A stretch of 64,000 bases of DNA from Fidelibacterota bacterium (GTDB lineage Bacteria; Fidelibacterota; SORT01): contig JACZTG010000001.1 in NCBI GenBank assembly GCA_022573815.1, forward strand, positions 859-64,858, given 5' to 3'. The notes under the pieces are model-generated. The model saw only the letters and a list, made by a program, of their open reading frames with translations. It was not told the origin of the DNA and ran no database searches. Shown piece by piece: positions 2,113 to 22,394 of this stretch; position 1 is the first letter of the stretch, and every line of letters begins with the position of its first letter. The position numbers and the translations under genes were made by a program.

Positions 2113-2135
2113 AAGTTAAAAGAAAGGAACAGATA

Positions 2136-4386: not shown

Positions 4387-4390
4387 CCGA

Positions 4391-6444: not shown

Positions 6445-6497
6445 GATTTTATTAAGCGTTGAAAGACAAAATAACAATTAAAGAGAACGGCTGACCT

Positions 6498-7004
6498 ATG
6501 GAAAATTCACTTGCTGTCAATTTAGCGGATGCATCCTGGCAACGGTTGCGTTCTATGGCATTGGCAACCGAACGGTATGAAAACTTTGTGGCGCTGGGTT
6601 CATCGAATATGTCAGATGATAAAAGTAACGGGAAATGGACACCGAATTTAAAGATAAACCCGCCTGAGGCTCTGGCGCTGGATTATCTGTCTATGACCAT
6701 AAGAGACGCGTTTGAAAGAGAAAATTCTGAGATAATGCTCCAACTTTCAGGAACCGAGCAAATCCAGCCTCTGGCTTTATCCGAGAAATTGGGAATGGCA
6801 GAACTTTCCTTGAGAGAAAGACTCGGAAATCTTTCTCAATGCGGATTAGTAATGAAAAATCTTGAGAGCGGGGGATATTTACTTACCGATGCGGGTGACG
6901 CTGTTGCGAACCTGATTCGAGATGCGGTGACCAATTTATCCCTGCGGATCGAGAAGGAACTCCCGGAACTCAATATAAAAAAAGAAGAACTCAAACATTG
7001 CTGA
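6498..7004 (+). CDS. Putative winged-helix transcriptional regulator (ArsR/MarR-like fold suspected)
   Basis: 168 aa. The segment IQPLALSEKLGMAELSLRERLGNLSQCGLVMKNLESGGYLLTD resembles an HTH followed by a wing. sHdr loci are known to carry ArsR-type repressors. This is a weak pattern-only call. Confidence 0.3.
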   Translation: MENSLAVNLADASWQRLRSMALATERYENFVALGSSNMSDDKSNGKWTPNLKINPPEALALDYLSMTIRDAFERENSEIMLQLSGTEQIQPLALSEKLGMAELSLRERLGNLSQCGLVMKNLESGGYLLTDAGDAVANLIRDAVTNLSLRIEKELPELNIKKEELKHC

Positions 7005-7241
7005 TTGGCGAGCGCATTGAATTGGGTGATTGTGGAATGGGGATGCCTGTCATCCGCGCATGGCAGGCGCTGAAGAAACAGCCCGTCGGGGGAATAGTCT
7101 GGTTGACGAGTTCACATCCGTGAGCGGAGCCCGATATCAACGCCTGGTGCAGGTCGTCCGGACAGAAGTTGCTGAAGATGGAAGAGGACGCTGAAGGAAA
7201 ACATTTTTACGTTCAAAGGATGAACTGATAAGGGAGAAATA

Positions 7242-7985
7242 TTGAAAATAGTTGTTCCAATGCAATTAGTGCCTGATTTAGTGGAAGACCTTGAAGTAGA
7301 TAACACAGGAAAGGCTTTAAATGAGGAAGATCTAAAATTAAAACTTAATGAATTTGACGATCACGCTCTCGAAGAAGCGATACAGCTGAAGGAATCGGAC
7401 GGCGCTGAAGTGGTGGCGATGACTCTTGACGGAGAAGGCGCAGACAAACTTCTTTTTACCGCTCTGGCAAAAGGCGCCGACAAATGTCTGAAGATAACGG
7501 GTGCCGCAGCATCTGATTCACATCAACGGGCAAAGGTTTTTGCCAATGCTATCAGTTCCGAAGGTTACGATCTTGTGCTTACGGGTGTTCAATCAGTGGA
7601 CGATAGAGACGGTCAGCTGGGTCCTATCTTGGCAACTTATCTCGATGTTCCAAGCGTGAGCGTTGTTTCTAATGTCTCGATATCCGGTAGCACGGTAACT
7701 CTCCGCAAGGAATATTCAGGCGGCTACATGGCTGAGTATGATGTTGAAACGCCTGCTGTGCTTGGAATACAAGCCGCGCGGCAAACGCCGCGATATGCTC
7801 CTGTGAGTAAGATAAAACAGATACAGGAAACTATGAGTATTGACAATACGGAGGCTGGAGATTCAGGGTCAGGAAGTGGAAGCGAAATCACGAAAATGGC
7901 GCCCCCTGCAAAGGGAGAAGGAGCAAAGATGCTTGATTCTGTTGACGAGCTGATTGAAGTGCTGAAAAATGCGGGCGCACTTTAG
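7242..7985 (+). CDS. etfB: Electron transfer flavoprotein beta subunit
   Basis: 247 aa. It has an EtfB-like N-terminus (MKIVVPMQLVPD...), the usual size, and is followed by etfA. Confidence 0.75.
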   Translation: MKIVVPMQLVPDLVEDLEVDNTGKALNEEDLKLKLNEFDDHALEEAIQLKESDGAEVVAMTLDGEGADKLLFTALAKGADKCLKITGAAASDSHQRAKVFANAISSEGYDLVLTGVQSVDDRDGQLGPILATYLDVPSVSVVSNVSISGSTVTLRKEYSGGYMAEYDVETPAVLGIQAARQTPRYAPVSKIKQIQETMSIDNTEAGDSGSGSGSEITKMAPPAKGEGAKMLDSVDELIEVLKNAGAL

Positions 7986-8036
7986 TGAACAGTATTAAAA
8001 AACAGATATTAATTTTATATAATAAATGGAATATAT

Positions 8037-8972
8037 ATGAGCGAACTTTTTGTAGTAACTGAACATCTTAATGGCGATTTCCAGGATATAACGTTTGAAA
8101 TGTTAGGAAAAGCAAAGGAATTGTCAAACGGTGGGAAATGTACAGCCATTGTATTTGGGAATATGAAAGATAAATATGCGGAATTGGGAGCTGCCGATAA
8201 TGTTTTATCCGTAGGTGGAAGCAGCGAATATAATCCCGAAGAATATGCCGCAGCGGTGAAGTCGGCTGTGAGTGAGAAGAATCCGGATTTAGTTCTAATA
8301 GGTTCAACCTCAATGGGGATGGACATCGCATCTCCGGTGGGTACGGGTCTCAATATTCCTGTGGTAGCGTATTGTACGGCTATTGAAGCGTCTGATGGCG
8401 GTTTTTCGTGTACAAGTCAACTTTACGGCGGCAAGATGGACGTGGTTTCTAATGTTCCTTCGCCGGCTATAGTTATGGTGAGTTCCGGAGCGTTCGATGC
8501 CGCAGCAGGAAAAGTTTCCGGTTCGCCCGCCGTTGAAGAATTCAGCGGCGACGCAGGTGCCGGCAAGGTGACGTTCAAATCGCTTATTGAGCCGGAAGCA
8601 GCCGATGTTGACATCACTCAAAGTAATATTATAGTGGCGATCGGAAGAGGAATAGGAAGTAAGGATGATGTAGAAGTTGCTGAAGAGATCGCCGAAGCTT
8701 TGAACGCCGATGTTGCCGGAACAAGACCGCTTATAGATGCGGGTTGGCTGCCGAAATCAAGGCAGGTAGGGAAATCCGGGCTAAAAGTTAAGCCTAAGGT
8801 TTATATCGCTCTCGGAATATCAGGCGCTCCCGAACATATAGAGGGAATGAAAGAATCGTCCACTATAATCGCGATTAACACTGACAAAAACGCTCCGATT
8901 TTCGACGTGGCTCATTATGGAATGACGGAAGACCTTTTTGACGTGTGTGAGGATTTATTGGATAAACTGTAA
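8037..8972 (+). CDS. etfA: Electron transfer flavoprotein alpha subunit
   Basis: 311 aa. The C-terminal FAD-binding region VYIALGISGAPEHIEGM matches the EtfA signature. Confidence 0.75.
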   Translation: MSELFVVTEHLNGDFQDITFEMLGKAKELSNGGKCTAIVFGNMKDKYAELGAADNVLSVGGSSEYNPEEYAAAVKSAVSEKNPDLVLIGSTSMGMDIASPVGTGLNIPVVAYCTAIEASDGGFSCTSQLYGGKMDVVSNVPSPAIVMVSSGAFDAAAGKVSGSPAVEEFSGDAGAGKVTFKSLIEPEAADVDITQSNIIVAIGRGIGSKDDVEVAEEIAEALNADVAGTRPLIDAGWLPKSRQVGKSGLKVKPKVYIALGISGAPEHIEGMKESSTIIAINTDKNAPIFDVAHYGMTEDLFDVCEDLLDKL

Positions 8973-9051
8973 TCCGGTTGTCATATTGAGATATTCCATT
9001 TGGTCTGTCTCGTTGCTTCATTATTAATAACCTGTTAAATGCGAGTAAACT

Positions 9052-11097
9052 TTGTTAACGCAAACAGAACAGATAGCGTTTATACTTCTCACCGTTGTTA
9101 GCATAGCGTTTGCATGGCGTGGTTTCAGCCGATTATTCAAGATTGTCAAGAGTGGAGCTGATACCGACCGGAGCGACGGATTAAGCGTCAGATTCATAAA
9201 GGCTCTTTTTGAAGTTGGAATTCAGAAACCTGTCTTTAAAGCCCGTCGCTGGGTAAGCGTTTTTCACTCATTCATCTTTTTCGGGTTCAGCTTTTACCTC
9301 TTGGTGAACGTGAATGACATCTTGGAAGCGTATGTTGACGGGTGGCATCTTATCGGAGCCGGTACCTTAGCCGGAGTGTTCAATCTCTTTGCGGACATAT
9401 TCAGCATCTTCGTTATTGTCGGAATGAATTTTTTTCTTTATCGGCGATTTGTTACAAAACCGAAAGAACTTGGTTACAACGATAATGTTATGCTTCATCC
9501 CGGTGTAGATTCAGGGGGAATAAAACGGGATTCTCTGTTAGTGGGTGTGTTTATTCTGTTGCATGTGGGCTCAAGATGGCTCGGCACTGTTTTCCATATA
9601 GCGGAATTGGGGCATGGCGATCCGTGGCTTCCTATTGCCAATTTATTTGCGCCTCTCTTTTCATTTATGAGCCATGAGTCCCTTGAAATTGCGATTCATA
9701 TTACGTGGTGGCTTGCAATGGGTTTGATAGTAATTTTTATACCGTATTTCCCGAGGAGCAAACATCTTCATCTAATGGTTGCGCCTGTCAACTTAGCGTT
9801 AGGGCGAAAAACTCCCCCAGGGAGGATGGACGATGTACTGAATATATCTTCTCCGGGAGCTGCGTCTCTCACCGACCTTCCTTGGCCGCAGGTGCTGGAC
9901 GCTTATGCCTGTATAATGTGTAACAGATGTCAGGAAGTCTGTCCCGCTCACACGTCAGGAACTCCACTGAGTCCAGCGGCGTTGGAGATAAACAAGCGGT
10001 ATTTTATCAACGAAAAAGGCGATGAAGTTCTCAACGGCGCAGGCGCGCAAAGTCTGATCGATTATGCTATTTCAGATGAAGCCGTATGGGCCTGCACAAC
10101 CTGCTATGCGTGCGTTCAGGTCTGTCCGGTGGGAAACGAGCCTCTTATGGATATACTGGAATTACGTCGGAATATGGTTTTTGACGGTAGGATGCCGGAC
10201 GAGCTTGCCGATGTGCTTCGGAGCTTAGACGAGCAGGGCAATTCGTTCAGGGAATCTGCAAGAAGGCGAACGCGTTGGACGAAGGATTTAGATTTTGAAA
10301 TAAAAGACGCTAAATCGGAACCCGTGAAGTATTTATGGTATGTAGGCGATTTTGCGTCATACAACCAATCGTGCAGGGACGTGAGCAGAAAATTAGCGCG
10401 GATTCTCCATTCGGCGGGAGTGGATTTCGGAATTATTATGAAAGGCGAAAAATCTGCGGGCAACGATGTTCGCAGGGTTGGCGAAGAAGGATTATTCGAA
10501 GCATTGGCGGAAGAAAATATTGAAACTCTCGCTCAGTGCGATTACGAGGAGATTTTTACTACCGATCCTCATACATATAACGCGCTGCATAACGAATACG
10601 GAAAATTTGGCGCTGAATATAAGATTAAACACTACTCCACACTGTTGAATGAGCTGATTGAAAGCGGAATGATAGAAATTAAAAAGAAAATCGACGCAAA
10701 AGCCACTTATCACGATCCATGCTATCTCGGTCGTTATAACGGAAATTATGAAGCTCCGCGTGACTTGATGAAAAGTTGCGGGGTAGAGCTGGTAGAGATG
10801 CCTCGGAACAGAGAAAACTCTTTCTGCTGCGGCGCGGGAGGCGGAAGAATCTGGATGAAAGACCACGATGATATGACACAGCGTCCGAGTGAGAACAGAA
10901 TAGAGGAGGCGATGGCTCTCGGTGGGATCGAATATTTCACAGTTTCCTGTCCGAAGGACTTTACGATGTATTCCGATGCGGTGAAAACATCCGGCAACGA
11001 AGGGAAGATAGAAGTCAGGGATATTGTTGATTATCTGATGGAAGCAATGGATTTACATGAAGAATCTGCGGCGAAAGAACCTCTGATTACAGAATAG
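9052..11097 (+). CDS. Membrane-anchored HdrD/DsrK-like FeS/CCG oxidoreductase (candidate Etf:quinone oxidoreductase, Emo-like)
   Basis: 681 aa with a TTG start. The N-terminal ~250 aa form 5-6 hydrophobic helices. Then come CIMCNRCQEVCP and CTTCYACVQVCP (two [4Fe-4S] motifs) and a C-terminal CCG domain, YHDPCYLGRYNGNYEAPRDL...FCCGAGGG. Confidence 0.6.
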   Translation: MLTQTEQIAFILLTVVSIAFAWRGFSRLFKIVKSGADTDRSDGLSVRFIKALFEVGIQKPVFKARRWVSVFHSFIFFGFSFYLLVNVNDILEAYVDGWHLIGAGTLAGVFNLFADIFSIFVIVGMNFFLYRRFVTKPKELGYNDNVMLHPGVDSGGIKRDSLLVGVFILLHVGSRWLGTVFHIAELGHGDPWLPIANLFAPLFSFMSHESLEIAIHITWWLAMGLIVIFIPYFPRSKHLHLMVAPVNLALGRKTPPGRMDDVLNISSPGAASLTDLPWPQVLDAYACIMCNRCQEVCPAHTSGTPLSPAALEINKRYFINEKGDEVLNGAGAQSLIDYAISDEAVWACTTCYACVQVCPVGNEPLMDILELRRNMVFDGRMPDELADVLRSLDEQGNSFRESARRRTRWTKDLDFEIKDAKSEPVKYLWYVGDFASYNQSCRDVSRKLARILHSAGVDFGIIMKGEKSAGNDVRRVGEEGLFEALAEENIETLAQCDYEEIFTTDPHTYNALHNEYGKFGAEYKIKHYSTLLNELIESGMIEIKKKIDAKATYHDPCYLGRYNGNYEAPRDLMKSCGVELVEMPRNRENSFCCGAGGGRIWMKDHDDMTQRPSENRIEEAMALGGIEYFTVSCPKDFTMYSDAVKTSGNEGKIEVRDIVDYLMEAMDLHEESAAKEPLITE

Positions 11098-11106
11098 GAG
11101 AGAAGT

Positions 11107-11553
11107 ATGAGCGACAGCACACAACTAAAATTTCCTGCCGACCGATATTACCATTCATCCAATCATATGTGGGCTAAGGAGACGGATGAAAACGGTGAAA
11201 TACTGGTAGGCATTGATGCGTTAGCGCTCGATTCGCTGGGTGAAATAGCCTATGCGTCTTTTGTTGAGATAAATACGGAAGTTAAAGCAGGCGACTCTAT
11301 CGGTACGCTTGAATCCGCCAAGATGACCACCGAAATATTCTCTCCCATATCCGGCGTGGTATCAGCTGTGAACGACATAGTACCGGAAACTCCGCTGCTT
11401 ATCAACGAACAGCCCTACGGTGAGGGTTGGCTGGTTGTTATCCGTGCGTCAGCTTGGGAAGCTGAATGCGCTGATTTAATATCTGGCGAAGAGATTTTTG
11501 AATGGTCACAGAATGAAATCGCAAGATATGAAACGGAAAATAATCAGAACTGA
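11107..11553 (+). CDS. lbpA: Second GcvH-like lipoate-binding protein (LbpA paralog)
   Basis: 148 aa. GTLESAKMTTEIFSPISGVV carries the lipoyl-lysine motif. Its TGATG overlap couples it to the downstream ligase gene. Confidence 0.6.
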   Translation: MSDSTQLKFPADRYYHSSNHMWAKETDENGEILVGIDALALDSLGEIAYASFVEINTEVKAGDSIGTLESAKMTTEIFSPISGVVSAVNDIVPETPLLINEQPYGEGWLVVIRASAWEAECADLISGEEIFEWSQNEIARYETENNQN

Positions 11554-12677
11554 TGGACTTGCGTCTTATAAAAGAGAACGGAGTCAGTGGCAGTTCCGGT
11601 TTAGCTGCTGACGAATCAATGGCTCTCAGGGTGGGGAGTGAAAAATCCCGTCCAACCCTAAGGCTCTATACCTATGATTCCTACAGCGCTCTTGTAGGAA
11701 GATTCCAAAACATTCAGAAAGAACTTAATCTCGAATATTGTCTCCAAAACTGTGTGGAATTTAACAGGCGACCCACAGGCGGAGGCGCAATTATTATGGG
11801 CGCAGACCAGCTCGGCGTCGCGTTAGCGTTGAAAGGAAACAAAACCGATACATATCATCGCGCTCGAGTATTGATGAAACAGTTTTCTGAGGGAACGGTG
11901 AAAACGCTTTCGAAGTTCGGTATCGAAGCTTCGTTCCGCGGGAAGAATGATATTGAGGTTGATGGAAGAAAAATCGCCGGATTGGGACTGCATAAAACAA
12001 GGACAGGCGGTCTTCTTTTTCACGCTTCAATTCTTGTAAACCTTGACGTGGAGCTAATGCTCAACGTATTGAGAACTCCCCTTAAAAGAATAACTGATAA
12101 AGCGGTTAAACTCGTTTCCGGCAGGATTACAACTGTGCGTAAACTTTTATCAAATGATATAACTGTAGATGAATTCAGCGCCGAGTTGGAAAAAGGTTTT
12201 TCTAAAGTATTCGGAGTAAATCTGATAAAGGGAGACTGGAGCAGTGAAGAAATCGGAGAATCTAATAAGTTGGAAGCAGAAAAATATCTGACAGAAAAAT
12301 GGATCTATTCTAAATCAAATGTCAAGGAGATGAATGGGAGAGCGGTCAGAAAAACAGAGGGTGGATTATTAGAGGTATCTGTAAATTTAGCGGGAAACAC
12401 GCTCAAAAAAGTGCAGATCGGCGGAGACATTTACGTTTCCGAAAACGCGCTGGCAGATTTGGAGTTCAGCCTCGCCTGGCATTCCGCTGCCTCTGATAAG
12501 ATAAAGGAAACTTTGAAACGGGTGTATAAAAAAAGAGAAAATGAATTTTCCAGGATCAGCTTTGATGACTTATATAACGGCGTACAGGATGCTGTGAAAG
12601 ACGCTTCTAATAACAGAACGGATATTGAAACCATGCCTTACGGCTGTTTCGTTAAAACGGATGGAAGTTATGCCTGA
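11553..12677 (+). CDS. lplA: Lipoate-protein ligase A-like enzyme (sLpl(AB)-type), with a C-terminal accessory domain
   Basis: 374 aa. NRRPTGGGAIIMG and IEVDGRKIAGLG match the BPL/LplA/LipB catalytic domain, including the conserved Lys. Confidence 0.65.
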   Translation: MDLRLIKENGVSGSSGLAADESMALRVGSEKSRPTLRLYTYDSYSALVGRFQNIQKELNLEYCLQNCVEFNRRPTGGGAIIMGADQLGVALALKGNKTDTYHRARVLMKQFSEGTVKTLSKFGIEASFRGKNDIEVDGRKIAGLGLHKTRTGGLLFHASILVNLDVELMLNVLRTPLKRITDKAVKLVSGRITTVRKLLSNDITVDEFSAELEKGFSKVFGVNLIKGDWSSEEIGESNKLEAEKYLTEKWIYSKSNVKEMNGRAVRKTEGGLLEVSVNLAGNTLKKVQIGGDIYVSENALADLEFSLAWHSAASDKIKETLKRVYKKRENEFSRISFDDLYNGVQDAVKDASNNRTDIETMPYGCFVKTDGSYA

Positions 12678-13644
12678 GCTCCTAACTCTGCCGGAAAATG
12701 TGACCGAGTTCCAAGTTGACCCGAATTGTATGTCTATTCGTCGGAGGAATTTTTCAAACGAAATTACTTTTCATATGCCCGGCCTCAAGACGCACCGGAC
12801 TTCAGAAATTGAAGGTTCATTGACGGAATTTGTTTCTCTGAGTGTGACGGGTTCAGCCTGCGCATTGAGCTGCGAGCACTGCAAAACGGAAGTGCTGAAG
12901 GGAATGGTGGATCTGACAGCCGAAGGGGGTTCTTTATATGATACCTGCCAGCGATTAGCGGAAAAGGGCGCACGGGGAGTTTTGGTCTCAGGCGGCAGTG
13001 ACCTGAAAGGCAGAGTCCCACTGTTGCAGCACGTGCCCGATTTGATAAGGATTCGAAAGGAATTAGGTTTGATTATTCGTTTGCATGTCGGACTTCCCGA
13101 CGAGGAAACGTGCGCGGCTATCTCGGAAATCGGCATAGACGGAGCGATGCTGGATATCATCGGTGATCAGGAAACAATATCCGATGTCTATCATCTGTCG
13201 GCTACGCCGGATGATTACGGAATGGCATTGGAAAATCTACAGCGATACAATGTGCCGACAATTCCGCATATTATCATCGGGCATTATTTCGGAAAGATGA
13301 AAGGTGAATGGAACGCGCTTCAGATGATTAAGAATAACCCGCCGAAAATTTTGGTACTGGTAATATTGATGCCGCTCACGGGAACGCCTATGGCAAACGT
13401 TTTACCTCCTTCAATGGACGAAATCGGATTGTTTTTTCAGACAGCCCGGATTGCATTACCAGAGACTCCTGTTATGCTGGGATGCGCCAAGCCGATAGGC
13501 GAAATGAAGCTGGGAGTAGATAAATTAGCCCTTGAAACGGGATTGAACGGAATCGCTTACCCCGCTGACGGGATAGTGGGTCAATCCGAACAACTCGGAT
13601 TAAAGCCGAATATCGTAAATGCTTGTTGTGGAGTAACCTGGTAA
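12661..13644 (+). CDS. Radical SAM protein (LipS1/LipS2-type lipoyl synthase candidate)
   Basis: The CALSCEHC motif (CxxxCxxC) lies near the N-terminus. I moved the start to ATG 12661 (MEVMPELL), which removes most of the overlap with the ligase gene. The longest ORF begins at 12625. Confidence 0.5.
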   Translation: MEVMPELLTLPENVTEFQVDPNCMSIRRRNFSNEITFHMPGLKTHRTSEIEGSLTEFVSLSVTGSACALSCEHCKTEVLKGMVDLTAEGGSLYDTCQRLAEKGARGVLVSGGSDLKGRVPLLQHVPDLIRIRKELGLIIRLHVGLPDEETCAAISEIGIDGAMLDIIGDQETISDVYHLSATPDDYGMALENLQRYNVPTIPHIIIGHYFGKMKGEWNALQMIKNNPPKILVLVILMPLTGTPMANVLPPSMDEIGLFFQTARIALPETPVMLGCAKPIGEMKLGVDKLALETGLNGIAYPADGIVGQSEQLGLKPNIVNACCGVTW

Positions 13645-13655
13645 AAGGGATAATA

Positions 13656-14747
13656 ATGGCAACTGAGATGTTAGCTCTGAGTGAGCAAAAGGAAATGCGG
13701 AATTTAAGCCCCGATTATGTGAGGATAAGCGCGGCGGCGGCAATCGAGCTGGGGCTAAAGCCGGGTCGGCTTGACAGGTGTAACTGTGGATGTATCAACT
13801 TGCTTCAGAATTATCCTGAAGGCTGTTACGCGAATTGCAGCTATTGCGGATTGGCCAGGGAACGTCCCGGTATTGCAGAAGAAAATTCGTTTATCAGAGT
13901 TGATTGGCCCCTTTATCCAACGGAGCAGGTGGCGGAGAAAATAGCTGAAAGGGAAGCGAATGGCGGGGTCGGAAGAGTTTGTATTGCGCAGGTGCAGGAT
14001 CATCGGGCAAACGCAGATCTTCTAAGTATGACGAAAATTGTTCACAGCGCGGCTCCTGACGTGCCTATCTCTGCTTTGGTTACAGCGACACTGATGGACA
14101 GACAGGTTCTTGCGGAGATAAAAGAAGCCGGAGCGGATATTATCGGAATCGGGATGGACGCCGCCACAGAAGAGATTTTTTATAATACCCGCGGAAAAGG
14201 CGCAAAGGGTCCCCACGATTGGAATTATCACTGGGAAATTGTAAATCTTGCCCGCGAGATGTACGGCGCTTATAAAGTGAATTGCCATATCATCATCGGA
14301 TTGGGCGAGACCGACAGGGATTTGACGAACATCTTTTATAAATGTAAGGAAGAGCAGTTGTCGTGCTACCTGTTCTCATTCAATCCTGAGCCGGGAACGG
14401 CATTGCAGGATTCGGAACGTCAGCCGATAGCCAGGCATCGGCGTATTCAGCTGGTCAAACAGTTGATAGAAAATAATGGACTTTCAAAAGACGCATTGGA
14501 ATTTGATAAAAACGGATTTATCTCGAATATAGATTATTCCGCTGATATTATTAATTTAACAGTGAATGAAGGAATCGCGTTTATGACGGACGGATGTCCC
14601 GATAGAGATGGTGTGATGGCGTGCAACAGACCATGCGGTTCCTACAGACCCGGAGAGGAATTCCGGGATTATCCATTTCCGCCAATGTCGAAAGATATAG
14701 AAGTGATTCAAAACGAGATGCGTCTAAATGAGGTAATCACCGCGTAA
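13656..14747 (+). CDS. Radical SAM protein with an extra N-terminal Cys cluster (LipS1/LipS2-type candidate)
   Basis: CYANCSYC is the radical SAM CxxxCxxC motif, preceded by the CNCGC extra Cys cluster and followed by a second Cys group (CPDRDGVMACNRPC). The start was set at ATG 13656, which has an aaagggataata RBS. The longest ORF begins at 13623. Confidence 0.5.
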   Translation: MATEMLALSEQKEMRNLSPDYVRISAAAAIELGLKPGRLDRCNCGCINLLQNYPEGCYANCSYCGLARERPGIAEENSFIRVDWPLYPTEQVAEKIAEREANGGVGRVCIAQVQDHRANADLLSMTKIVHSAAPDVPISALVTATLMDRQVLAEIKEAGADIIGIGMDAATEEIFYNTRGKGAKGPHDWNYHWEIVNLAREMYGAYKVNCHIIIGLGETDRDLTNIFYKCKEEQLSCYLFSFNPEPGTALQDSERQPIARHRRIQLVKQLIENNGLSKDALEFDKNGFISNIDYSADIINLTVNEGIAFMTDGCPDRDGVMACNRPCGSYRPGEEFRDYPFPPMSKDIEVIQNEMRLNEVITA

Positions 14748-14750
14748 ATT

Positions 14751-15743
14751 ATGGTAAAACCGATACGATTGATAGATTTAGGAGCGATTGACGGCATAAT
14801 GACTCAGGCGGTGTATCACGCGGTAGCGGAGAAAATGGATGAGTCAACGCCCGATACCATAATACTGAACAGCACAAAATCTCCGTATGTTTGTTTTGGC
14901 TATCATCAGGATGCGGAAAGTGTCATAGATTTGGATGTGTGCAGAAAATTAAATGTACCTGCGGTTCGCCGTAAATTGGGCGGAGGCGCTACTTATCTTG
15001 ATGAAAATCAGCTCTTTTACCAGCTGGTATTTCAAAAATCGGAATTGCCGGCAAATTTCAGGAATGTTTATGCGAAAATGTTGGAAGCGCCCGTGAAAAC
15101 CCTAAAATCGTTTGGACTTAACGCAAAACTAAAAGATATAAACGAGATAGAGGTTGACGGCAAACGGATTGCCGGAACGGGTGGCGGGCAAATAGGCGAT
15201 GCGTGTGTTGTTGTGGGGAACTTTTTATTCGATTTCGATTTTGAAGCTATGTCTTCATTATGGAAAGCTCCATGGGATTCTTTCCGAACACTTGCGGGAA
15301 AAGCGCTTAGGAACCACATTACAACTCTTTGGGAATACGACAGTTCATTCAGCAAAGAAATCATATCGTCGCAACTGATAATAGATTTTTCAGCTGTTTT
15401 TCAAAGACCGATTCAGCCGGGAGAATTAACTTCAGATGAGAAAGAACTCTCGGAGGAATTATCTGAGAAATTGAGCTCAACAGAGTTTGTTGTTGATACC
15501 AATAAAAACGGTGCGTCGCCAAGACCGCTTAAAATTTCTAACGGAGTTTTTATACACGCTGAAAATTATTCTTTGGGAGTAAATAGAATACGCGGCAGCT
15601 TTACGGTGGCAAATAATTTCATAGAAGAATCAATAATCGAGCTGCGGAATGGCAATTTATGGGAAGCAATTGATGTTGATCTTTATGGAATAGAGATTGC
15701 TGATTGGACAAATCATATTAAAATTGAATTGCGTGCTGCCTGA
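14751..15743 (+). CDS. Second LplA/LipB-family protein (lipoate/octanoyl transferase paralog)
   Basis: 330 aa. RRKLGGGATYLDENQLFYQ and IEVDGKRIAGTG parallel the motifs of the ligase at 11553. Confidence 0.5.
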   Translation: MVKPIRLIDLGAIDGIMTQAVYHAVAEKMDESTPDTIILNSTKSPYVCFGYHQDAESVIDLDVCRKLNVPAVRRKLGGGATYLDENQLFYQLVFQKSELPANFRNVYAKMLEAPVKTLKSFGLNAKLKDINEIEVDGKRIAGTGGGQIGDACVVVGNFLFDFDFEAMSSLWKAPWDSFRTLAGKALRNHITTLWEYDSSFSKEIISSQLIIDFSAVFQRPIQPGELTSDEKELSEELSEKLSSTEFVVDTNKNGASPRPLKISNGVFIHAENYSLGVNRIRGSFTVANNFIEESIIELRNGNLWEAIDVDLYGIEIADWTNHIKIELRAA

Positions 15744-16906
15744 TGGTTAAACTGCTAAAAAAATATCTGTCTGACCCGTTCCTGAAGCGGCTTTACAGTG
15801 AGATTCGAAAAGCAGGCTCTCTCCGGTCCATCTCTGTGGACATCACTCACGAGTGCAATATCCGGTGCAGAGGGTGTTATTTTTTCAGCGAGGGAATGGA
15901 AGAGTCTGAGTCTCCTCCCGATGAAAACAAATTTGATGCGTTTATAGAACGAGAGCTCGAACGGGGAACTAATTTTGTCACTGTTGTGGGAGGCGAACCG
16001 AGTCTCATGCTGGGGAGACTGAAAAAACTTCATTCAAATTTTCATATAAATGTTTCAACAAACGGTCTTATAAAAATACCATATGAAGGGTTCGAGTCAA
16101 TGCCTATCGGTGTTTCGGTATGGGGAGATAATCAGACAGACAGATATATGCGAGGCGGCGGAAACGTTGATACATTCGCGATAGCGCTGAAGAATTACAA
16201 AGACGATCCAAGAGCGTTCTGGTACTATACTGTGGCTCCGGGACGGAAGAATGAGATTGAGCGGGTAGTGGAGAAGTGTATAAACAACGGTAATCAGGTT
16301 TTATTTAATTTTTACGGCGATTTGTTAGGATTTGGCGGGGAATTGGATTCCGGCAGCGGTTTTGACGAAGTGAGAATTGAGATAGACCGAATGATCAGCC
16401 TCTACCCTGATAAGATGTTTATGAGTTCTTACCTGAGTAAAATCGTTTCAACAGGCACTTTATACGGTTTGAAATGGGGACATGAAGTATGCACGAGTTT
16501 GAGCGCGAATCACGAGGCGAATTTCGAAAGATTGAAAAACGGAAATCCTTATAACCCGCACTTCAGAGCTTATAATGCTGATTTGGAATCTACTCGTAGA
16601 TGCTGTACCGGAATCAACCGTTCGTGCCATACTTGTTTCGATGTCTGGGAGCATTTTTCGTGGGTAATTCTCAATATGAAAAAACATATCGGATCTAAGC
16701 AGGAATTCAGTAACTGGCTAACGACTATGTATCTGTTTTATCTTATAAACCGATTGGTGAATTTTGATGAAGGGATCAAGCTACTGCCGGAAATCCACAA
16801 ACGGCTTGGAAATACGACTAAGAGAGAATCACATAATATAGATAGAATCAAAATTTCTGCTTTCGCTACCGTGGAAAGCGGGTTAATGGAGATTACCGAT
16901 CCCTGA
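15743..16906 (+). CDS. Third radical SAM enzyme, carrying an additional C-terminal Cys cluster
   Basis: ITHECNIRCRGCYF is the radical SAM motif. The C-terminal RRCCTGINRSCHTCFD cluster could hold an auxiliary FeS cluster. Confidence 0.5.
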   Translation: MVKLLKKYLSDPFLKRLYSEIRKAGSLRSISVDITHECNIRCRGCYFFSEGMEESESPPDENKFDAFIERELERGTNFVTVVGGEPSLMLGRLKKLHSNFHINVSTNGLIKIPYEGFESMPIGVSVWGDNQTDRYMRGGGNVDTFAIALKNYKDDPRAFWYYTVAPGRKNEIERVVEKCINNGNQVLFNFYGDLLGFGGELDSGSGFDEVRIEIDRMISLYPDKMFMSSYLSKIVSTGTLYGLKWGHEVCTSLSANHEANFERLKNGNPYNPHFRAYNADLESTRRCCTGINRSCHTCFDVWEHFSWVILNMKKHIGSKQEFSNWLTTMYLFYLINRLVNFDEGIKLLPEIHKRLGNTTKRESHNIDRIKISAFATVESGLMEITDP

Positions 16907-16934: not shown

Positions 16935-17951
16935 ATGATAAACAATAACCATCGTTACTTGTCGTTGTTGGTAACACTGTTTTTCTTAGTCTCAATCCCG
17001 GCATTCAGCGACGCAGCCAAAAAGGAATACAGAGTGTATGAGTTCGTAATTGAATCTGTCGAGGGTACATTTGAAGCGGCGGCAGACAGCCTTTCTTCGG
17101 CGATAGCAATGTCGGATTGGAAGCTGCTTACTACTATCAATTCCGGTGTTCCGGAAGATTGTGGATTCCGTGCTATAGTATTTGTTTTATATGATTCGAC
17201 ATTCGCGGCGAAAATAATGGATGCGAACCATAAAACAGGGGCTTACGGCACTGTTGACCGGATAAATCTCTTTGAAGATGAAAACGGATTTCACGTGTCG
17301 ATTGCAAACCGCAAATCAACTGACCGGACGGTCTTGTTGGATGATGAGTCATTCGAGGGAACTACTAAGGCGCAGCATGATAATCTCCGGCTGCTTATTG
17401 AATCAGCCCTAAAGGGCACATCAAGCAACAAAGAATATGGTCAGAAGCGTAAAAAAGGATATATCGGACGAACAATGGGCGTTATGGCCGGCGGAAGTTT
17501 TGATGGCAAGATTGGTAATATTATTGAATTACCCGGAGCAAACTTTGACGATGTGGTCGGTAAAGCTCGCCAGGGTTTATCTATGACCGGTGAGAAATGG
17601 GGGATGCACTTAGTTTACGAATTAAATCTTCCCGGATATAAAACTGTGGTATTCGGAAGTACGGGGACTCCGATGGACAGGAAATCATTCGATATAGTTA
17701 AGGCGGGTTCGGACAAATCACGCAAAAAGGGAAAGTGTCCCGGAATTGCTCATGCCGCCGCTTTTCCGATTGAAATCGTAGTACAGGAAGAAAACGGAGT
17801 TATCAATGTCAGTAGCGTTAATGCGATGTACAGGATGAAGATGTATTTTGAGGACGCCGGGAAATGGGCGTTTATGAAAAATATGACTATGCCCGGTTCA
17901 ATAGGAAGTGAATTGGAAGATCAGATCGAAGGAGTATTGGAAGAAGAATGA
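16935..17951 (+). CDS. Secreted protein with two DUF302-like repeats (tentative)
   Basis: The signal peptide is MINNNHRYLSLLVTLFFLVSIPAFSDA. Two segments have a DUF302-like pattern: AIVFVLYDS...GTVDRINLFEDENGFHVS and TVVFGSTGTPMD...FPIEIVVQEENGVINVS. Its stop overlaps the next gene (ATGA). Confidence 0.3.
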   Translation: MINNNHRYLSLLVTLFFLVSIPAFSDAAKKEYRVYEFVIESVEGTFEAAADSLSSAIAMSDWKLLTTINSGVPEDCGFRAIVFVLYDSTFAAKIMDANHKTGAYGTVDRINLFEDENGFHVSIANRKSTDRTVLLDDESFEGTTKAQHDNLRLLIESALKGTSSNKEYGQKRKKGYIGRTMGVMAGGSFDGKIGNIIELPGANFDDVVGKARQGLSMTGEKWGMHLVYELNLPGYKTVVFGSTGTPMDRKSFDIVKAGSDKSRKKGKCPGIAHAAAFPIEIVVQEENGVINVSSVNAMYRMKMYFEDAGKWAFMKNMTMPGSIGSELEDQIEGVLEEE

Positions 17952-19531
17952 ACTTAGCATTCACAATAGATAATCGGAAGTGTATCGGCTGTCATGCTTG
18001 CACGGTAGCATGTAAGTCAGAGCATGATATTCCATTAGGAGTCAACAGAACATGGGTAAAGTATGTGGAAAAGGGCGTTTATCCCGATACCCGCAGACTT
18101 TTCTCGGTTCTTCGGTGCAACCATTGTGAAGATGCTCCTTGCATTGATATATGCCCGACCAATGCTCTGCACACTCTCGATAACGGTATTGTGGACTTTG
18201 ATACTGATCGGTGTATAGGCTGCAAATCATGCATGCAAGCGTGTCCGTATGACGCGTTATATATCAATCCGGAAACTCACGTGGCAGAAAAATGTAATTT
18301 CTGCGCCCACCGGATAGAAGCGCAAATGGCGCCGGCATGCGTGATTGTATGTCCCGTTGAGGCGATTGGATTTGGCGATATAAGTGACCCGAACGCCGAT
18401 ATTACGAAACTTATCGCAATGGAAGCTGTTACCGTGCGAAAAGCGGAAAAAGGAACAAAGCCGAAAGTGTTTTATATTAACGGTGACAGCGCTTCGCTTG
18501 ATCCCGGCTCAACTGCAAAAAAAGACGAATATATGTGGAGCGAGCAATCACGCGGTGTGGGACATTTCGCTCATTACGCCGACCAACGGAGCTCTGAAAA
18601 AGACCCTGAAGATCTGCTCGTGCAACTCGCTCTTGATAATAAGGGTAAACATGGGAAAGAGATTCAGGAGACGCTGAAATCCGGGGATGCCCGAAGAGTT
18701 TACGACAGTCCGAGCAAGGGCGTTCTCTGGGGCTGGGAAGTATCCGCTTATGTTTGGACAAAGGCTATTTCAGCGGGTCTGTTTATGGTATTGGCTTTAG
18801 GAAGCTTGTTCGGATGGTTTGAGATAAGCGCTGGATTGAGAGAAAAATCTCTCTGGTCGTCAATGCTCTTTTTGGTCATTACCGGCGGACTGTTGGTTAA
18901 GGACCTTGACCAACCGAAACGGTTTCTCTATGTCCTGCTCCGACCTCATTGGTCATCGTGGTTGGTCAAAGGAGCTTATTTCATCACGGCGTTCGGGGCA
19001 ATCTTATCTCTTTCCATATTGAATCTTTATTTCCCAACAGGAATAGACAGTCGTCTGTTTGATATTATCGGAGGCTTGATTGCCTTTATGGTAGCCATAT
19101 ACACGGCGTTACTTTTCGCTCAGGCGAAGGGAAGAGATTTTTGGCAGTCGCCGATTGCGCCGGCGCAAATGGGTGTGAATTCACTGCTTGCCGGAACTGC
19201 GCTTCTGCTGATGCTCGGCTCCGGCTTAGGCAGCGGGATAATCAATCTCGCAATAGCTCTTCTGATTACAAACCTGTTATTCACCGCACTTGAGCTGTTC
19301 ACGCCGCATATGACGGACGACGCAAAATCGGTTGCGGATATGATTCTTAAAGGGAGATACGGCAGACAATTCTGGATAACGATAATTTTTTCAAGAGTAG
19401 TACCGCTATTATTGTTTATGTTCGCGCCGCAATTATTGCCAATAGATTTAGTGGCGTTGATAGTATTAGCGGGAATATTAAGTACTGAACATATCTGGGT
19501 CAGAGCTCCGCAACTGATAACCTTGAGTTGA
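17948..19531 (+). CDS. Fusion of a four-cluster ferredoxin subunit (PsrB/NrfC/DmsB-like) with an NrfD/PsrC-like integral membrane anchor
   Basis: 527 aa. The N-terminal ~180 aa hold four Cys clusters: CIGCHACTVAC, CNHCEDAPCIDICP, CIGCKSCMQACP and CNFCAHRIEAQMAPACVIVCP. The C-terminal ~330 aa form about 8 hydrophobic helices. No signal or Tat motif is visible. Confidence 0.6.
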   Translation: MNLAFTIDNRKCIGCHACTVACKSEHDIPLGVNRTWVKYVEKGVYPDTRRLFSVLRCNHCEDAPCIDICPTNALHTLDNGIVDFDTDRCIGCKSCMQACPYDALYINPETHVAEKCNFCAHRIEAQMAPACVIVCPVEAIGFGDISDPNADITKLIAMEAVTVRKAEKGTKPKVFYINGDSASLDPGSTAKKDEYMWSEQSRGVGHFAHYADQRSSEKDPEDLLVQLALDNKGKHGKEIQETLKSGDARRVYDSPSKGVLWGWEVSAYVWTKAISAGLFMVLALGSLFGWFEISAGLREKSLWSSMLFLVITGGLLVKDLDQPKRFLYVLLRPHWSSWLVKGAYFITAFGAILSLSILNLYFPTGIDSRLFDIIGGLIAFMVAIYTALLFAQAKGRDFWQSPIAPAQMGVNSLLAGTALLLMLGSGLGSGIINLAIALLITNLLFTALELFTPHMTDDAKSVADMILKGRYGRQFWITIIFSRVVPLLLFMFAPQLLPIDLVALIVLAGILSTEHIWVRAPQLITLS

Positions 19532-19535
19532 TAAA

Positions 19536-22394
19536 ATGAGTCATAATATAAAAAAATCAATGATCGAACGGGTATGCGAATCGATAGGCTTGTTAAAAAG
19601 TATCGAACAGTCCGGCGAATTAATAAATGAATTTACGGAAGCACCGGCTGATTTCTCGAATTATCCACCACCTGAGAAATGGGACGACTGGACCGAGTAC
19701 GATGCGAACTCGTGGCCGCGAAGGGTAAAGAAGAGCTACTCGATAGTTCCAACGACCTGCTTCAACTGCGAATCAGCATGCGGTATGCTGGCGTATATTG
19801 ATAAGGAAAATGGCACAATCAGGCGGTTTGAAGGTAATCCGTATCATCCGGGAAGCAGAGGAAGAAATTGCGCTAAAGGTCCCGCTACTATAAATCAGAT
19901 CAATGATCCCGAGAGGATATTATACCCGCTGAAACGTAAAGGCGAGAGAGGCAGCGGTGAATGGGAACGGGTTTCATGGGAAGACGCTCTTAACGATATA
20001 TCAGGAAAATTAAGAAAATCGTTGCAGGAAGGGCGACAAAATAATATAGCCTATCATGTAGGAAGACCGGGTCATGAAGGATACACGGAAAGGGTTCTTC
20101 AGGCGTGGGGAGTGGATGGGCATAATTCGCATACCAATATATGCTCTGCCGGAGCGCGGACAGGATATGCTCTCTGGCAAATGTTCGACAGACCCTCTCC
20201 CGACCACGCCAACGCAAAGACGATCTTACTCATCAGTTCACATTTGGAAACGGGACACTATTTCAATCCGCACGCGCAAAGGATAATTGAAGGGATGATG
20301 GACGGCGCGAAACTCATAGTTATGGATCCGCGACTTTCGAATACTGCGAGTATGGCGGATGTATGGATGCCGACTTATCCGGGTTCTGAAGCGGCTGTAC
20401 TGCTTGCAATTGCGAAAATCATTCTCGATGAAGGCAAATATGACAGACAATATATGGAAACATGGGTAAACTGGCAGGATTATATGGCGAAAGTTCATCC
20501 TTCTGATAATCCGACTTTTGATAACTTTATAGGACGACTCAAAAAAGAGTATGAAGAATTCACACCTGAATTCGCGGCGGCTGAGGCTAATATCACACCT
20601 GAGTCTATCGTACAGGCAGCTAAAATGGTGGCGGATGCGGGAAGTAAACTCTCAACGCACAACTGGCGTTCCGCGGGAAGCGGGAACCTCGGCGGATGGC
20701 AGGTAGCGCGTTGTCTCCACTTTCTGAATGTATTGACAGGCAGCGTTGGAACTGTAGGCGGCACATCTCCCAGCGGTTGGAATAAATTCAAGCCTAAATT
20801 CTTCGATGTTCCTCCGGCACAGAAATTCTGGAATGAACTGCACTATCCCGCTGAATATCCGATAGCGCACCATGAAATGAGTTTTCTTCTCCCGCATTTT
20901 CTAAAGGAGGGAAGAGGGGAATTAGACGTTTACTTCACCCGGGTTTTTAATCCTGTCTGGACTTATCCGGACGGATTCACATGGATAGAAGCGTTGAAGG
21001 ATGAATCAAAAATAAAATTACACGTTGCGATGACTCCCACATGGAACGAAACGGCTTATTGGGCGGATTATGTGCTTCCCATGGGGCATGCAGGCGAGCG
21101 GCACGACCTTAATTCCTACGAAACACATTCAGGAATGTGGATAGCGTTCCGTCAGCCGGTGCTACGGGAGTTTGCCCGCAGAGAAGGAAAAGAGGTTGAG
21201 TTTACTTATGAAGTGAACCCCGGTGAGGTATGGGAAGAAGATGAGTTTTGGATAGAGCTTTCGTGGAAGATAGACCCGGATGAATCGCTCGGCATAAGAA
21301 AACATTTCAAGTCTCCTTATCGTGATGGCGAAAAAATCAGTGTGGACGAATATTATCAATATATCTTTGAAAATATTCCGGGCTTGAAGGATAAAGCCGC
21401 TGAGGAAGATTTGGCTCCGCTTGACTATATGAGAAAATACGGCGCATTTGAAATTGAAGAAACTTCATACGAAAAAAACCGAAACCCGCTGGATGAATCA
21501 CAAATGGAAGGCACGGAACTGAACAGCGCCGGTCAGATCGTTAAAGACGGTAAAATTATCGGGGTTCAGGATGGCGAAGTAGCTGTCACCGGGTTTCCGA
21601 CACCATCGAAAAAACAGGAATTCTACTCCAACACAATGGCTGAATGGAAATGGGAAGAATTTACCATCCCTAAATATATCAAGAGTCACATTCACCCCGA
21701 GAATCTTGATAAATCGAAAAACGAATACGTCCTTGTGCCCACTTTCAGACTACCTACCTTGATTCACAGCCGGTCGGGAAACGCTAAATGGCTCGTTGAG
21801 ATTGCGCACCGAAATCCAATATGGATCCATCCTTCCACAGCTGAAAAAGTAGGTATAAAAAACAGCAGCGATCTACTGAAGATTGAAACAGAAATCGGCT
21901 ATTTCATAGACAAGGTATGGATAACGGAGGGGATGAAGCCCGATGTTATCGCCTGTTCCCATCATATCGGCAGATGGCGTCGCCGGCAGGATATGAAAGG
22001 AAACAGTTGGGCAATGAATACGGTTTCTATCGAAGAGGTAGAGCCGGGTAAGTATAAAATGTCGGTTTTGGATTCTGTTAAGCCATTTGACAGCAGCGAC
22101 AGCGACTCGAAACGTATCTGGTGGCGTGACGGCGGAGTGCATCAAAATATTACATTCCCTGTCCATCCCGATCCTATATCGGGTATGCATTGCTGGCATC
22201 AGAAAGTATCCATCAGCGTTCCGAAGGATGGGGAGAAATACGGCGATATATTCGTGGACACGAATAAGTCCCATGAGGTTTATAAAGAGTGGCTGAAGTT
22301 GACCCGTCCCGGCCCCGGCCCTGACGGCTTGAGACGTCCTCTCTGGTTTGCCCGGACTCTGAGACCGGCGGAAGAAACTTTCTACGTTAAATAA
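19536..22394 (+). CDS. Molybdopterin oxidoreductase catalytic subunit (MopB superfamily; Psr/Phs/Ttr/Arr-like branch suspected), apparently without a Tat signal
   Basis: 952 aa. CFNCESACGM...C provides the N-terminal FeS0 site. GNPYHPGSRGRNCAKG is a MopB signature and ICSAG is a candidate Mo-ligand Cys. The N-terminus has no RRxFLK motif. Confidence 0.7.
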   Translation: MSHNIKKSMIERVCESIGLLKSIEQSGELINEFTEAPADFSNYPPPEKWDDWTEYDANSWPRRVKKSYSIVPTTCFNCESACGMLAYIDKENGTIRRFEGNPYHPGSRGRNCAKGPATINQINDPERILYPLKRKGERGSGEWERVSWEDALNDISGKLRKSLQEGRQNNIAYHVGRPGHEGYTERVLQAWGVDGHNSHTNICSAGARTGYALWQMFDRPSPDHANAKTILLISSHLETGHYFNPHAQRIIEGMMDGAKLIVMDPRLSNTASMADVWMPTYPGSEAAVLLAIAKIILDEGKYDRQYMETWVNWQDYMAKVHPSDNPTFDNFIGRLKKEYEEFTPEFAAAEANITPESIVQAAKMVADAGSKLSTHNWRSAGSGNLGGWQVARCLHFLNVLTGSVGTVGGTSPSGWNKFKPKFFDVPPAQKFWNELHYPAEYPIAHHEMSFLLPHFLKEGRGELDVYFTRVFNPVWTYPDGFTWIEALKDESKIKLHVAMTPTWNETAYWADYVLPMGHAGERHDLNSYETHSGMWIAFRQPVLREFARREGKEVEFTYEVNPGEVWEEDEFWIELSWKIDPDESLGIRKHFKSPYRDGEKISVDEYYQYIFENIPGLKDKAAEEDLAPLDYMRKYGAFEIEETSYEKNRNPLDESQMEGTELNSAGQIVKDGKIIGVQDGEVAVTGFPTPSKKQEFYSNTMAEWKWEEFTIPKYIKSHIHPENLDKSKNEYVLVPTFRLPTLIHSRSGNAKWLVEIAHRNPIWIHPSTAEKVGIKNSSDLLKIETEIGYFIDKVWITEGMKPDVIACSHHIGRWRRRQDMKGNSWAMNTVSIEEVEPGKYKMSVLDSVKPFDSSDSDSKRIWWRDGGVHQNITFPVHPDPISGMHCWHQKVSISVPKDGEKYGDIFVDTNKSHEVYKEWLKLTRPGPGPDGLRRPLWFARTLRPAEETFYVK

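Follow-up and report, generated by a model that had tools for sequence, protein, structure and literature searches.

Lipoate assembly was regarded as fully worked out until 2023, when the sLpl(AB)–LipS1/S2 route joined the known pathways. The locus described here raises the question of what a second ligase paralog, LplA2, and a third radical SAM protein, rSAM3, are doing in a lipoate-assembly module of this kind. It lies in a 64,000-nucleotide (nt) window of contig JACZTG010000001.1 from a Fidelibacterota bacterium. Coordinates given below are positions in that window, and the genes of the module and its surrounding cluster are all on the plus strand. An earlier note on this DNA had described an expanded lipoate-assembly module at 11107–16906 inside an sHdr gene cluster. 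The six plus-strand open reading frames (ORFs) are indeed there, and both the gene content and the recurrence of the arrangement in many species and phyla bear that description out. Our explanation is that LplA2 and rSAM3 belong to the module and would act, downstream of sLpl(AB), on the acyl arm borne by its lipoate-binding proteins (LbpA), with 11107–16906 making up the half of one type II sHdr sulfur-oxidation operon that matures the cofactor. We give this explanation as a whole a probability of about 0.5.

The first four genes of the module correspond to a documented pathway, the sLpl(AB)–LipS1/LipS2 lipoate pathway of sHdr sulfur oxidizers (Tanabe et al. 2023, PMC10332631; Cao et al. 2018, PMC6067878). 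LbpA2 (11107–11553, 148 amino acids [aa]; PF01597, 95.7 bits) is a GcvH-like lipoate-binding carrier that scores under the cut-offs of the true GcvH models of NCBIfam. Aligned with LbpA1, the carrier encoded near the start of the sHdr cluster, it keeps the lipoyl-lysine motif LESAK (K72), and ES.K is present in both proteins. The start of slpl(AB) overlaps the lbpA2 stop (ATGA). Its product (11553–12677, 374 aa; PF21948, 132 bits; TIGR00545, 164.7 bits) is a lipoate:protein ligase with the canonical ND...GRKIAG (N132, D133, and K140) and a fused LplB-like C-terminal domain that weakly matches Lip_prot_lig_C (PF10437); the LplA domain with its conserved lysine, the LplB-type domain, and the place beside lipS1, lipS2, and lbpA identify it as sLpl(AB). 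LipS1 (12670–13644, 324 aa) lies in an ORF that opens at a TTG at 12625. Its true start is probably the ATG at 12670, as called on an identical 17-kb metagenome contig that also supplied the gene start of LipS2. It scores 230.6 bits against the NF053742 cut-off of 230, carries the CX3CX2C motif as CALSCEHC, and has further cysteines in GCAKP and NACCG. LipS2 (13656–14747, in an ORF from 13623, with 13656 the probable true start) does not reach the NF053743 cut-off (196.3 bits, E 7.5e-58, vs. 270). That model is nevertheless its best match by a wide margin, the runner-up being BioB at 7.8e-11; the gene is syntenic with those for LipS1 and sLpl(AB), the protein is 55–68% identical to the products of same-position genes in related loci, and it contains CNCGC, CYANCSYC, and a C-terminal cysteine group. 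By homology and synteny with homologues for which these activities are established (PMC10332631), we infer that sLpl(AB) would use ATP to load free octanoate or lipoate onto the LbpA carriers at their conserved lysine and that LipS2 and LipS1 would next insert two sulfurs.

The locus has in common with the published pathway an LbpA carrier, a fused Lpl(AB) with the canonical lysine, and LipS1 and LipS2 clustered with shdr. The published set is lipS1-slpl(AB)-lipS2-lipT, whereas the set here is without LipT and has LplA2 and rSAM3 inserted. The missing LipT-like reductase had been singled out earlier as a peculiarity of the module. Its absence stands, since a LipT-like FAD oxidoreductase was found neither in the module nor among the nine other window ORFs of 288–471 aa that were tested, and no LipT-like gene recurs across 29 related loci. 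As a peculiarity it does not stand: LipT is encoded by only ∼53% of bacteria that have LipS1/S2 and is missing from 47% (Tanabe 2023, PMC10332631), and none of the 14 Bacteroidota, 5 Calditrichota, and 7 Marinisomatota LipS1/S2 genomes tabulated there has it (S4 Table, PMC10332631). LipT is simply absent here, as in Marinisomatota LipS1/S2 genomes, and its lack does not set the module apart.

The second LplA paralog

LplA2 (14751–15743, 330 aa) has the cofactor-transferase fold. It matches PF21948 with 106 bits (cut-off 27), its AlphaFold2 (AF2) model reaches a pLDDT of 92.5, and Foldseek pairs that model with Thermoplasma acidophilum LplA at E 7e-23 and TMt 0.87. The nearest structures are archaeal LplA ligases (TMt 0.83–0.87); the LipM-like structures 2p5i and 2p0l, and LipB, match the fold less well. 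There is no PF10437 match in LplA2. The accessory domain is present all the same: the LplB-like domain of sLpl(AB) has a homologue in the C-terminal part of LplA2 (hhalign probability 99.5%, 271 columns, to residue ∼311), and the HMMER alignment to Mhp-Lpl (6jom) runs to residue 301.

LplA2 departs from a canonical ligase in its catalytic motif. The ND...K of sLpl(AB) is N131-E132...R139 in LplA2, which reads DGKRIAG in place of DGRKIAG. In the conserved family motif G-[RK]-K-h-x-G, R139 takes the position of the lysine (E. coli K133, T. acidophilum K145), and the upstream ND (E. coli N121 and D122) is NE, with E132 invariant in the LplA2 clade, so the pattern expected of an active ligase is missing. 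MAFFT and hhalign both paired R139 with the lysine, as did HMMER alignments to Mhp-Lpl (6jom), Streptococcus pneumoniae LplA (1vqz), and T. acidophilum LplA (2ars). The position is arginine in 118 of 120 LplA2 homologues. The preceding residue is variously K, R, Q, M, D, or L, and therefore there is no shifted catalytic lysine; K138, tried as a register-shifted one, corresponds to R, Q, M, D, or L in 31 of the 120. In E. coli LplA, K133 is reportedly essential, on single-residue evidence ascribed to Fujiwara (2010). To our knowledge, arginine replaces the catalytic lysine in no characterized member of the LplA family. The triple mutant N121A/D122A/K133A of the E. coli enzyme is inactive (bioRxiv 10.1101/2024.11.22.624956).

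That this gene might prove a degenerate pseudo-paralog without the catalytic lysine had been foreseen, and half of this came true. The lysine is lost, with R139 invariant in its place. However, LplA2 is not degenerate, because the clade has more than 60 invariant positions (among them H23, C48, H52, N131, E132, E134, R139, and G144–G146), the full Lpl(AB) fold is predicted with confidence, and the change from ND...K to NE...R conserves charge. The RRxxGGG acyl/nucleotide-binding motif is also kept. LplA2 does not resemble the cysteine-dependent transferases: it scores 20.3 bits against the LipB model (cut-off 235), it matches none of the LipL-type amidotransferase models of NCBIfam, and no invariant cysteine falls at the position of the LipM/LipL/LipB Cys-Lys dyad, that mapping being approximate. 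C152, considered as a LipB/LipM-like catalytic cysteine, was discarded for lack of conservation, many homologues having S, A, or E there.

The family is widespread and its genomic position is almost fixed. A database search returned ∼400 full-length homologues of 325–335 aa, mostly from Chloroflexota/Anaerolineae and sharing ∼47% identity with the protein of the window. The order lbpA (one to three copies)-slpl(AB)-lipS1-lipS2-LplA2 is seen in three long contigs of Chloroflexota or metagenome origin (L007–L009), two of which continue with PsrBC-like and Mo-enzyme genes. LplA2 also comes directly after lipS2 in seven loci selected through rSAM3. Scanning metagenomes with an LplA2 profile yielded 80 loci, of which 38 were R-type (having the arginine) with at least 1 kb of upstream sequence. 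An automatic test put lipS2 directly upstream of LplA2 in 34 of these 38; three of the four failures are artefacts of ORF overlap or spacing, which brings the adjacency to ∼37 of 38 (∼97%). Where a sampled locus extends far enough upstream, sLpl(AB) is found together with R-type LplA2, except in three loci (L128, L139, and L147); in no sampled locus was R-type LplA2 the sole ligase of its cluster.

A sister clade, LplA2′, retains the lysine. Its members (300–364 aa, 30–36% identity) occur, depending on the class of placement, in L025, L033, L034, L043, L053, and L060 or in L158–L167. They lie directly upstream of dsrE-lbpA1-shdr in Planctomycetota and Bacteroidota, and elsewhere they follow lbpA-lbpA as the only ligase (L158–L167). 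LplA2′ may be a ligase lineage dedicated to LbpA1 and distinct from sLpl(AB). Some archaea carry two LplA genes (supplement S5 of Tanabe 2023); Tanabe et al. pooled all ligases as “Lpl.”

The third radical SAM protein

The rSAM3 gene (15743–16906, 387 aa) starts within the stop of LplA2 (ATGA). Its product belongs to the radical SAM superfamily by the invariant C38x3C42x2C45 and by PF04055 (31.3 bits, cut-off 29.5). Six further cysteines are invariant (C179, C250, C287, C288, C295, and C298), a pattern from which an auxiliary Fe-S cluster is probably bound. The C-terminal group, previously given as CCx5CxxC, is in fact CCx6CxxC (C287, C288, C295, and C298). Among 674 homologues, the best 120 are 60–77% identical to rSAM3 across Calditrichota, Bacteroidota, Marinimicrobia, Acidobacteria, and Chloroflexota, and identity to the Marinimicrobia loci is 65–77%; together with the rSAM3 tree described below, this makes the host probably a relative of Marinisomatota. 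A profile of the family found only 74 matches at E ≤1e-30 among 1.84 billion cluster representatives, as would fit a compact and highly conserved family.

No NCBIfam family comes near its cut-off, and the weak matches (viperin, ScmE, PapB, MoaA, anSME, and SkfB-type) involve only the N-terminal region, residues ∼27–110. BLASTP against LipS1 and LipS2 gives no significant match, and rSAM3 falls outside LipA, LipS1, LipS2, and BioB. By sequence it does not qualify as a SPASM/twitch maturase either, having no SPASM-domain match, an anSME score of 15.8 bits against a cut-off of 349, and a cysteine pattern that differs from the CX9-15GX4C...CX2CX5CX3C of SPASM domains. Thus, a firm clustering with an unrelated characterized family such as the sulfatase maturases, raised at the outset as grounds for removing the gene from the module, was not found. 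A sequence search of the PDB returned SkfB only (E 8.7e-5). The AF2 model is a partial TIM barrel (pTM 0.81) for which Foldseek finds only generic radical SAM neighbors (TM ≤0.47); the nearest solved folds are SkfB, anSME, SuiB, and ChlB, which modify peptides or proteins, and the nucleoside-modifying BlsE. The general fold is similar to that of BlsE, SkfB, anSME, and MoaA, but identity is 13–18% and no SPASM Pfam match is present, and C250...CCx6CxxC and the conserved C-terminal helices distinguish the rSAM3 family from twitch/SPASM enzymes. As modeled, rSAM3 is best described as a distinct family in the twitch/SPASM structural neighborhood and not as a LipA/LipS-type enzyme. What it has in common with LipA and BioB is the core of the radical SAM fold and, probably, an auxiliary Fe-S cluster. 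The sulfur-inserting role once suggested for it is not indicated, because apart from the radical SAM fold rSAM3 shows no relationship to LipA, LipS, or BioB.

A scan restricted to one genome per species kept 80 loci, 51 of which encode proteins with 46% or more identity to the rSAM3 of the window. Of these 51 species-level loci, 25 lie inside sHdr/lipoate clusters, in at least four gene orders and about five phyla; their hosts are Marinimicrobia, KSB1, Calditrichaceae, several Bacteroidota orders, and Planctomycetota including Brocadiaceae. rSAM3 comes directly after lipS2 in 10 loci, after lipS2-LplA2 (as in the window) in 7, and after emo in 4, and it is divergent from Soe-like genes, upstream of LplA2′-dsrE-lbpA1, in 3–4. 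Its commonest neighbor is lipS2 or LplA2 (17 of 25). All sHdr-linked copies fall into one clade (the S clade) of a neighbor-joining tree that carries no bootstrap values. The other copies form a second clade or are basal, and ten of those loci adjoin FAAL-ACP-KS-AT-DH-KR-ACP-TE megasynthases (ACP, acyl carrier protein). Conserved and co-localized across loci, the extra transferase and the third radical SAM protein are parts of the module, as had been proposed, and not accidents. An obligate LplA2–rSAM3 pair was considered and rejected, as each occurs without the other.

The relatives outside sHdr clusters show a recurrent setting. In Nostoc (L026, L027, L029, and L040; ∼6.6–17.5 kb), rSAM3 homologues of 55–59% identity, in tandem in three of the four loci and as one copy in L040, sit in a KS-AT/HMG-CoA-synthase/2× ECH/ACP/KS-ACP/FAAL-ACP-TE cluster. 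This cluster is an uncharacterized polyketide/fatty-acid pathway with radical SAM tailoring. In one protein, P0241 (724 aa), a TubC-like docking domain and a type II thioesterase (GWSMGG) are naturally joined to an rSAM3-family domain; the fusion links the family to carrier-protein assembly lines. A sister family, 32–35% identical over the full length, occurs as a tandem pair in L061–L089 (e.g., L063, 4232–15814), in hosts from Syntrophia (Smithella, Syntrophaceae), Desulfobacterota (Desulfobacterales), and Spirochaetota. Its cluster encodes a FabA-like protein, an ACP, a B12-radical SAM protein, a deacetylase, two FabF, a DH-like protein, and PlsY; the B12-radical SAM protein belongs to TIGR04072, “lipid biosynthesis B12-binding/radical SAM” (390.7 bits, cut-off 360). 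This “ladderane-type” lipid cluster likewise has a dedicated carrier protein and acyl-chain enzymes, but the carrier is an ACP and not LbpA, and sHdr and lipS genes are absent. What the contexts of the rSAM3 family share is a swinging-arm carrier that bears an acyl chain; in sHdr clusters this carrier is LbpA. Two small genes also recur in these surroundings: one for an ArsR-type regulator (∼104 aa) in rSAM3-containing sHdr clusters (L043, L053, L059, and L060), and one for a 170-aa DsrE-like protein in Bacteroidota loci (L043, L053, and L060).

Possible roles of LplA2 and rSAM3

Most likely LplA2 is no independent ligase, because its catalytic NE...R is remodeled, sLpl(AB) is nearly always alongside, and it is never the sole ligase. 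The simplest reading is that R-type LplA2 no longer adenylates on its own and works downstream of sLpl(AB). It would then be a transferase, relay, or presentation factor working after adenylation rather than an adenylating ligase in its own right. In that capacity it might hand the octanoyl or lipoyl group, or acyl-AMP that sLpl(AB) has formed, to one specific LbpA; alternatively, it might hold acyl-LbpA for the radical SAM enzymes. An octanoyl-transfer relay between the two carriers, one of the ideas in the earlier note, is possible. For its part, the sHdr-clade rSAM3 would perform an extra radical C–H functionalization on the LbpA-bound octanoyl or lipoyl arm. Two-enzyme lipoyl relays are known from Bacillus subtilis (LipM/LipL) and Plasmodium (LipL1/LipL2), in which one paralog activates or loads the acyl group and the other transfers it to further carriers. 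In these relays LplA-fold paralogs split the labor, and we liken sLpl(AB) and LplA2 to them; unlike the proteins of the LipM/LipL relays, however, LplA2 has a fold closer to archaeal LplA ligases and an arginine at the conserved lysine position. Cofactor assembly here probably has more steps than the published pathway. A bolder version, in which rSAM3 of a LipT-less type II sHdr system further modifies the arm and Arg-type LplA2 is a non-adenylating relay between LbpAs, so that a new lipoyl-derived cofactor or a third lipoate route results, is speculative and in our estimate improbable.

Several observations weigh against placing LplA2 and rSAM3 on the LbpA-borne arm. LbpA from type I organisms carries plain lipoate by mass spectrometry (PMC6067878). 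Many rSAM3 clusters (Saprospirales, Calditrichaceae, and one KSB1) are without LplA2 within 10 kb, and Chloroflexota clusters have LplA2 and no S-clade rSAM3 nearby. In four loci rSAM3 follows emo and not a lipoate gene, and the tree behind the S clade is the unbootstrapped one. The nearest folds of rSAM3 belong largely to peptide or protein modifiers, and therefore a protein substrate is also plausible. Finally, arginine can sometimes stand in electrostatically for lysine, and LplA2 might adenylate.

The last two points are the seeds of rival explanations. rSAM3 could be unrelated to lipoate and mature some protein or cofactor of the sulfur-oxidizing machinery: the Soe-like Mo enzyme, an Fe-S site or residue in sHdr or in EMO, or, as a twitch/SPASM protein-modifying enzyme would, the polypeptide of LbpA. 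Its position after emo in four Bacteroidota loci and its divergence from Soe-like genes in three would fit such a role, as would its weak N-terminal similarity to MoaA and to tungsten (W)-cofactor maturase models. However, its close paralogs (55–59%) and its sister family sit in ACP, polyketide synthase (PKS), and FabF clusters that are without sHdr, EMO, or a Mo enzyme; lipS2 and LplA2 are its most frequent neighbors; and Soe-like genes in Chloroflexota clusters have no rSAM3 beside them. We consider this explanation unlikely. Its narrower form, a MoaA-like or Mo/W-cofactor maturase, was rejected on account of the paralogs in PKS/ACP clusters and the Chloroflexota Mo enzyme without an adjacent rSAM3. 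The broader suspicion that the extra genes are chance neighbors or lineage-specific baggage could appeal to the roughly one-half of rSAM3 homologues that lie outside sHdr clusters. It founders on recurrence over about five phyla in rearranged orders, on the separate sHdr-linked rSAM3 clade, on the start/stop overlaps, and on LplA2 following lipS2 in ∼97% of loci; these synteny data effectively refute it, and we hold it to be extremely improbable.

For LplA2 the alternatives turn on the arginine. The protein might be a complete ATP-dependent ligase in which arginine does the work of lysine, serving another carrier (such as LbpA1) or another acid. Such a ligase would account for the full Lpl(AB) architecture with its confident ligase-like fold and RRxxGGG and for the charge-conserving nature of the substitutions; it would also suit clusters that have at least two LbpA paralogs each, and Lys-type LplA2′ does adjoin dsrE-lbpA1 and can be the sole ligase. 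But the lysine is regarded as essential in E. coli LplA, whose triple mutant is inactive, and only three of the loci with sufficient upstream sequence have R-type LplA2 without sLpl(AB), none of the sampled clusters having it as its only ligase. A self-sufficient LplA2 is thus doubtful in our view. The opposite extreme, a non-catalytic pseudoenzyme that serves as a scaffold docking LbpA to LipS1/LipS2, would explain both the loss of the catalytic lysine and the obligate place right after lipS2; the invariant N131, E132, E134, R139, G144–G146, H23, C48, and H52 point instead to a preserved ligand-binding or catalytic pocket, and we rate the scaffold as quite improbable. Compared with these, action of LplA2 and rSAM3 on the LbpA-borne arm after sLpl(AB) remains our preferred reading.

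In the searchable literature we found no third radical SAM protein or Arg-type ligase paralog in sHdr/lipoate clusters, and in NCBIfam release 20 models exist for LipS1, LipS2, and LplAB but none captures LplA2 or rSAM3. For these reasons we regard the two proteins as new additions to a known core operon. LplA2 is at present annotated “lipoate--protein ligase,” a practice that the R-type finding corrects. A large, multi-phylum subset of sHdr oxidizers carries both or either of the extra proteins, including Marinimicrobia (abundant and marine), Bacteroidota, Planctomycetota, KSB1, Calditrichota, and Chloroflexota. LplA2 and rSAM3 are thereby entry points to the loading of multiple LbpA carriers, to the identity of the type II cofactor, and to the acyl-chain chemistry of rSAM3.

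The surrounding operon and neighboring genes

The module belongs to a tightly packed plus-strand gene series that extends from 175 to 22394, identified by Pfam and NCBIfam matches except where stated. It opens with dsrE (175–549), GcvH-like lbpA1 (604–1026), and a thioredoxin-like gene (1088–1375). Next come, in order, shdrC1, shdrB1, shdrA, and a hypothetical gene, shdrB3, an HdrC2-B2 fusion (5149–6444), a 168-aa ORF (6498–7004) with only a weak HVO_A0261_N match, etfB and then etfA, and emo, encoding a membrane HdrD-like protein of 681 aa (EMO, 9052–11097). Homologues of the 168-aa ORF, here between shdrB3 and etfB, adjoin emo in L059, L128, L139, L147, L148, and L157. The type II sHdr cluster is defined as shdrC1B1AHB3-etfAB-emo (PMC11094781), and the window at 1474–11097 fits shdrC1B1AHB3 and etfAB in one syntenic cluster. 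Upstream of the module the core order is kept, and the sHdrB3 fusion, EtfAB, and EMO are found there as well. The published description of type II sHdr lists sulfur transferases and lipoate genes as well; a third radical SAM protein, a second ligase paralog, and a Soe-like Mo enzyme, which travel together here, are not listed there (PMC11094781). From lbpA2 through the Mo-enzyme gene, junctions overlap or are ≤28 nt apart, and between 10500 and 24500 promoter- and terminator-like sites are no commoner than in shuffled controls. The lipoate-assembly genes read as sitting in one operon with shdr-etfAB-emo and as translationally coupled.

Downstream of rSAM3 lies a gene (16935–17951) whose 338-aa product begins with a signal-like N-terminus and matches nothing in Pfam or NCBIfam. 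Translational coupling ties this gene to the PsrBC-like one that follows, and homologues occur in L011 (57%), L014 (40%), and L136 (35%). The series ends with a PsrB-like Fe-S/NrfD fusion (17948–19531, 527 aa) and a Mo-bisPGD oxidoreductase without a twin-arginine signal (19536–22394, 952 aa). From their sequences, 17948–22394 probably encodes a SoeABC-like sulfite dehydrogenase facing the cytoplasm. PsrB/NrfD and Mo-enzyme genes travel with LplA2 and rSAM3 in Marinimicrobia, KSB1, Chloroflexota, and Bacteroidota.

Two observations concern more distant parts of the window. At 44713–45759 is a 348-aa ORF for ribosomal protein S16 in which the S16 similarity is confined to the first ∼67 residues, and the stretch at 44–46 kb has an unusually high AT skew of 0.34. 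At 48794–52089, the ORF after SelA (PF03841) is 626 aa long and possibly SelB; the organism probably makes selenoproteins.

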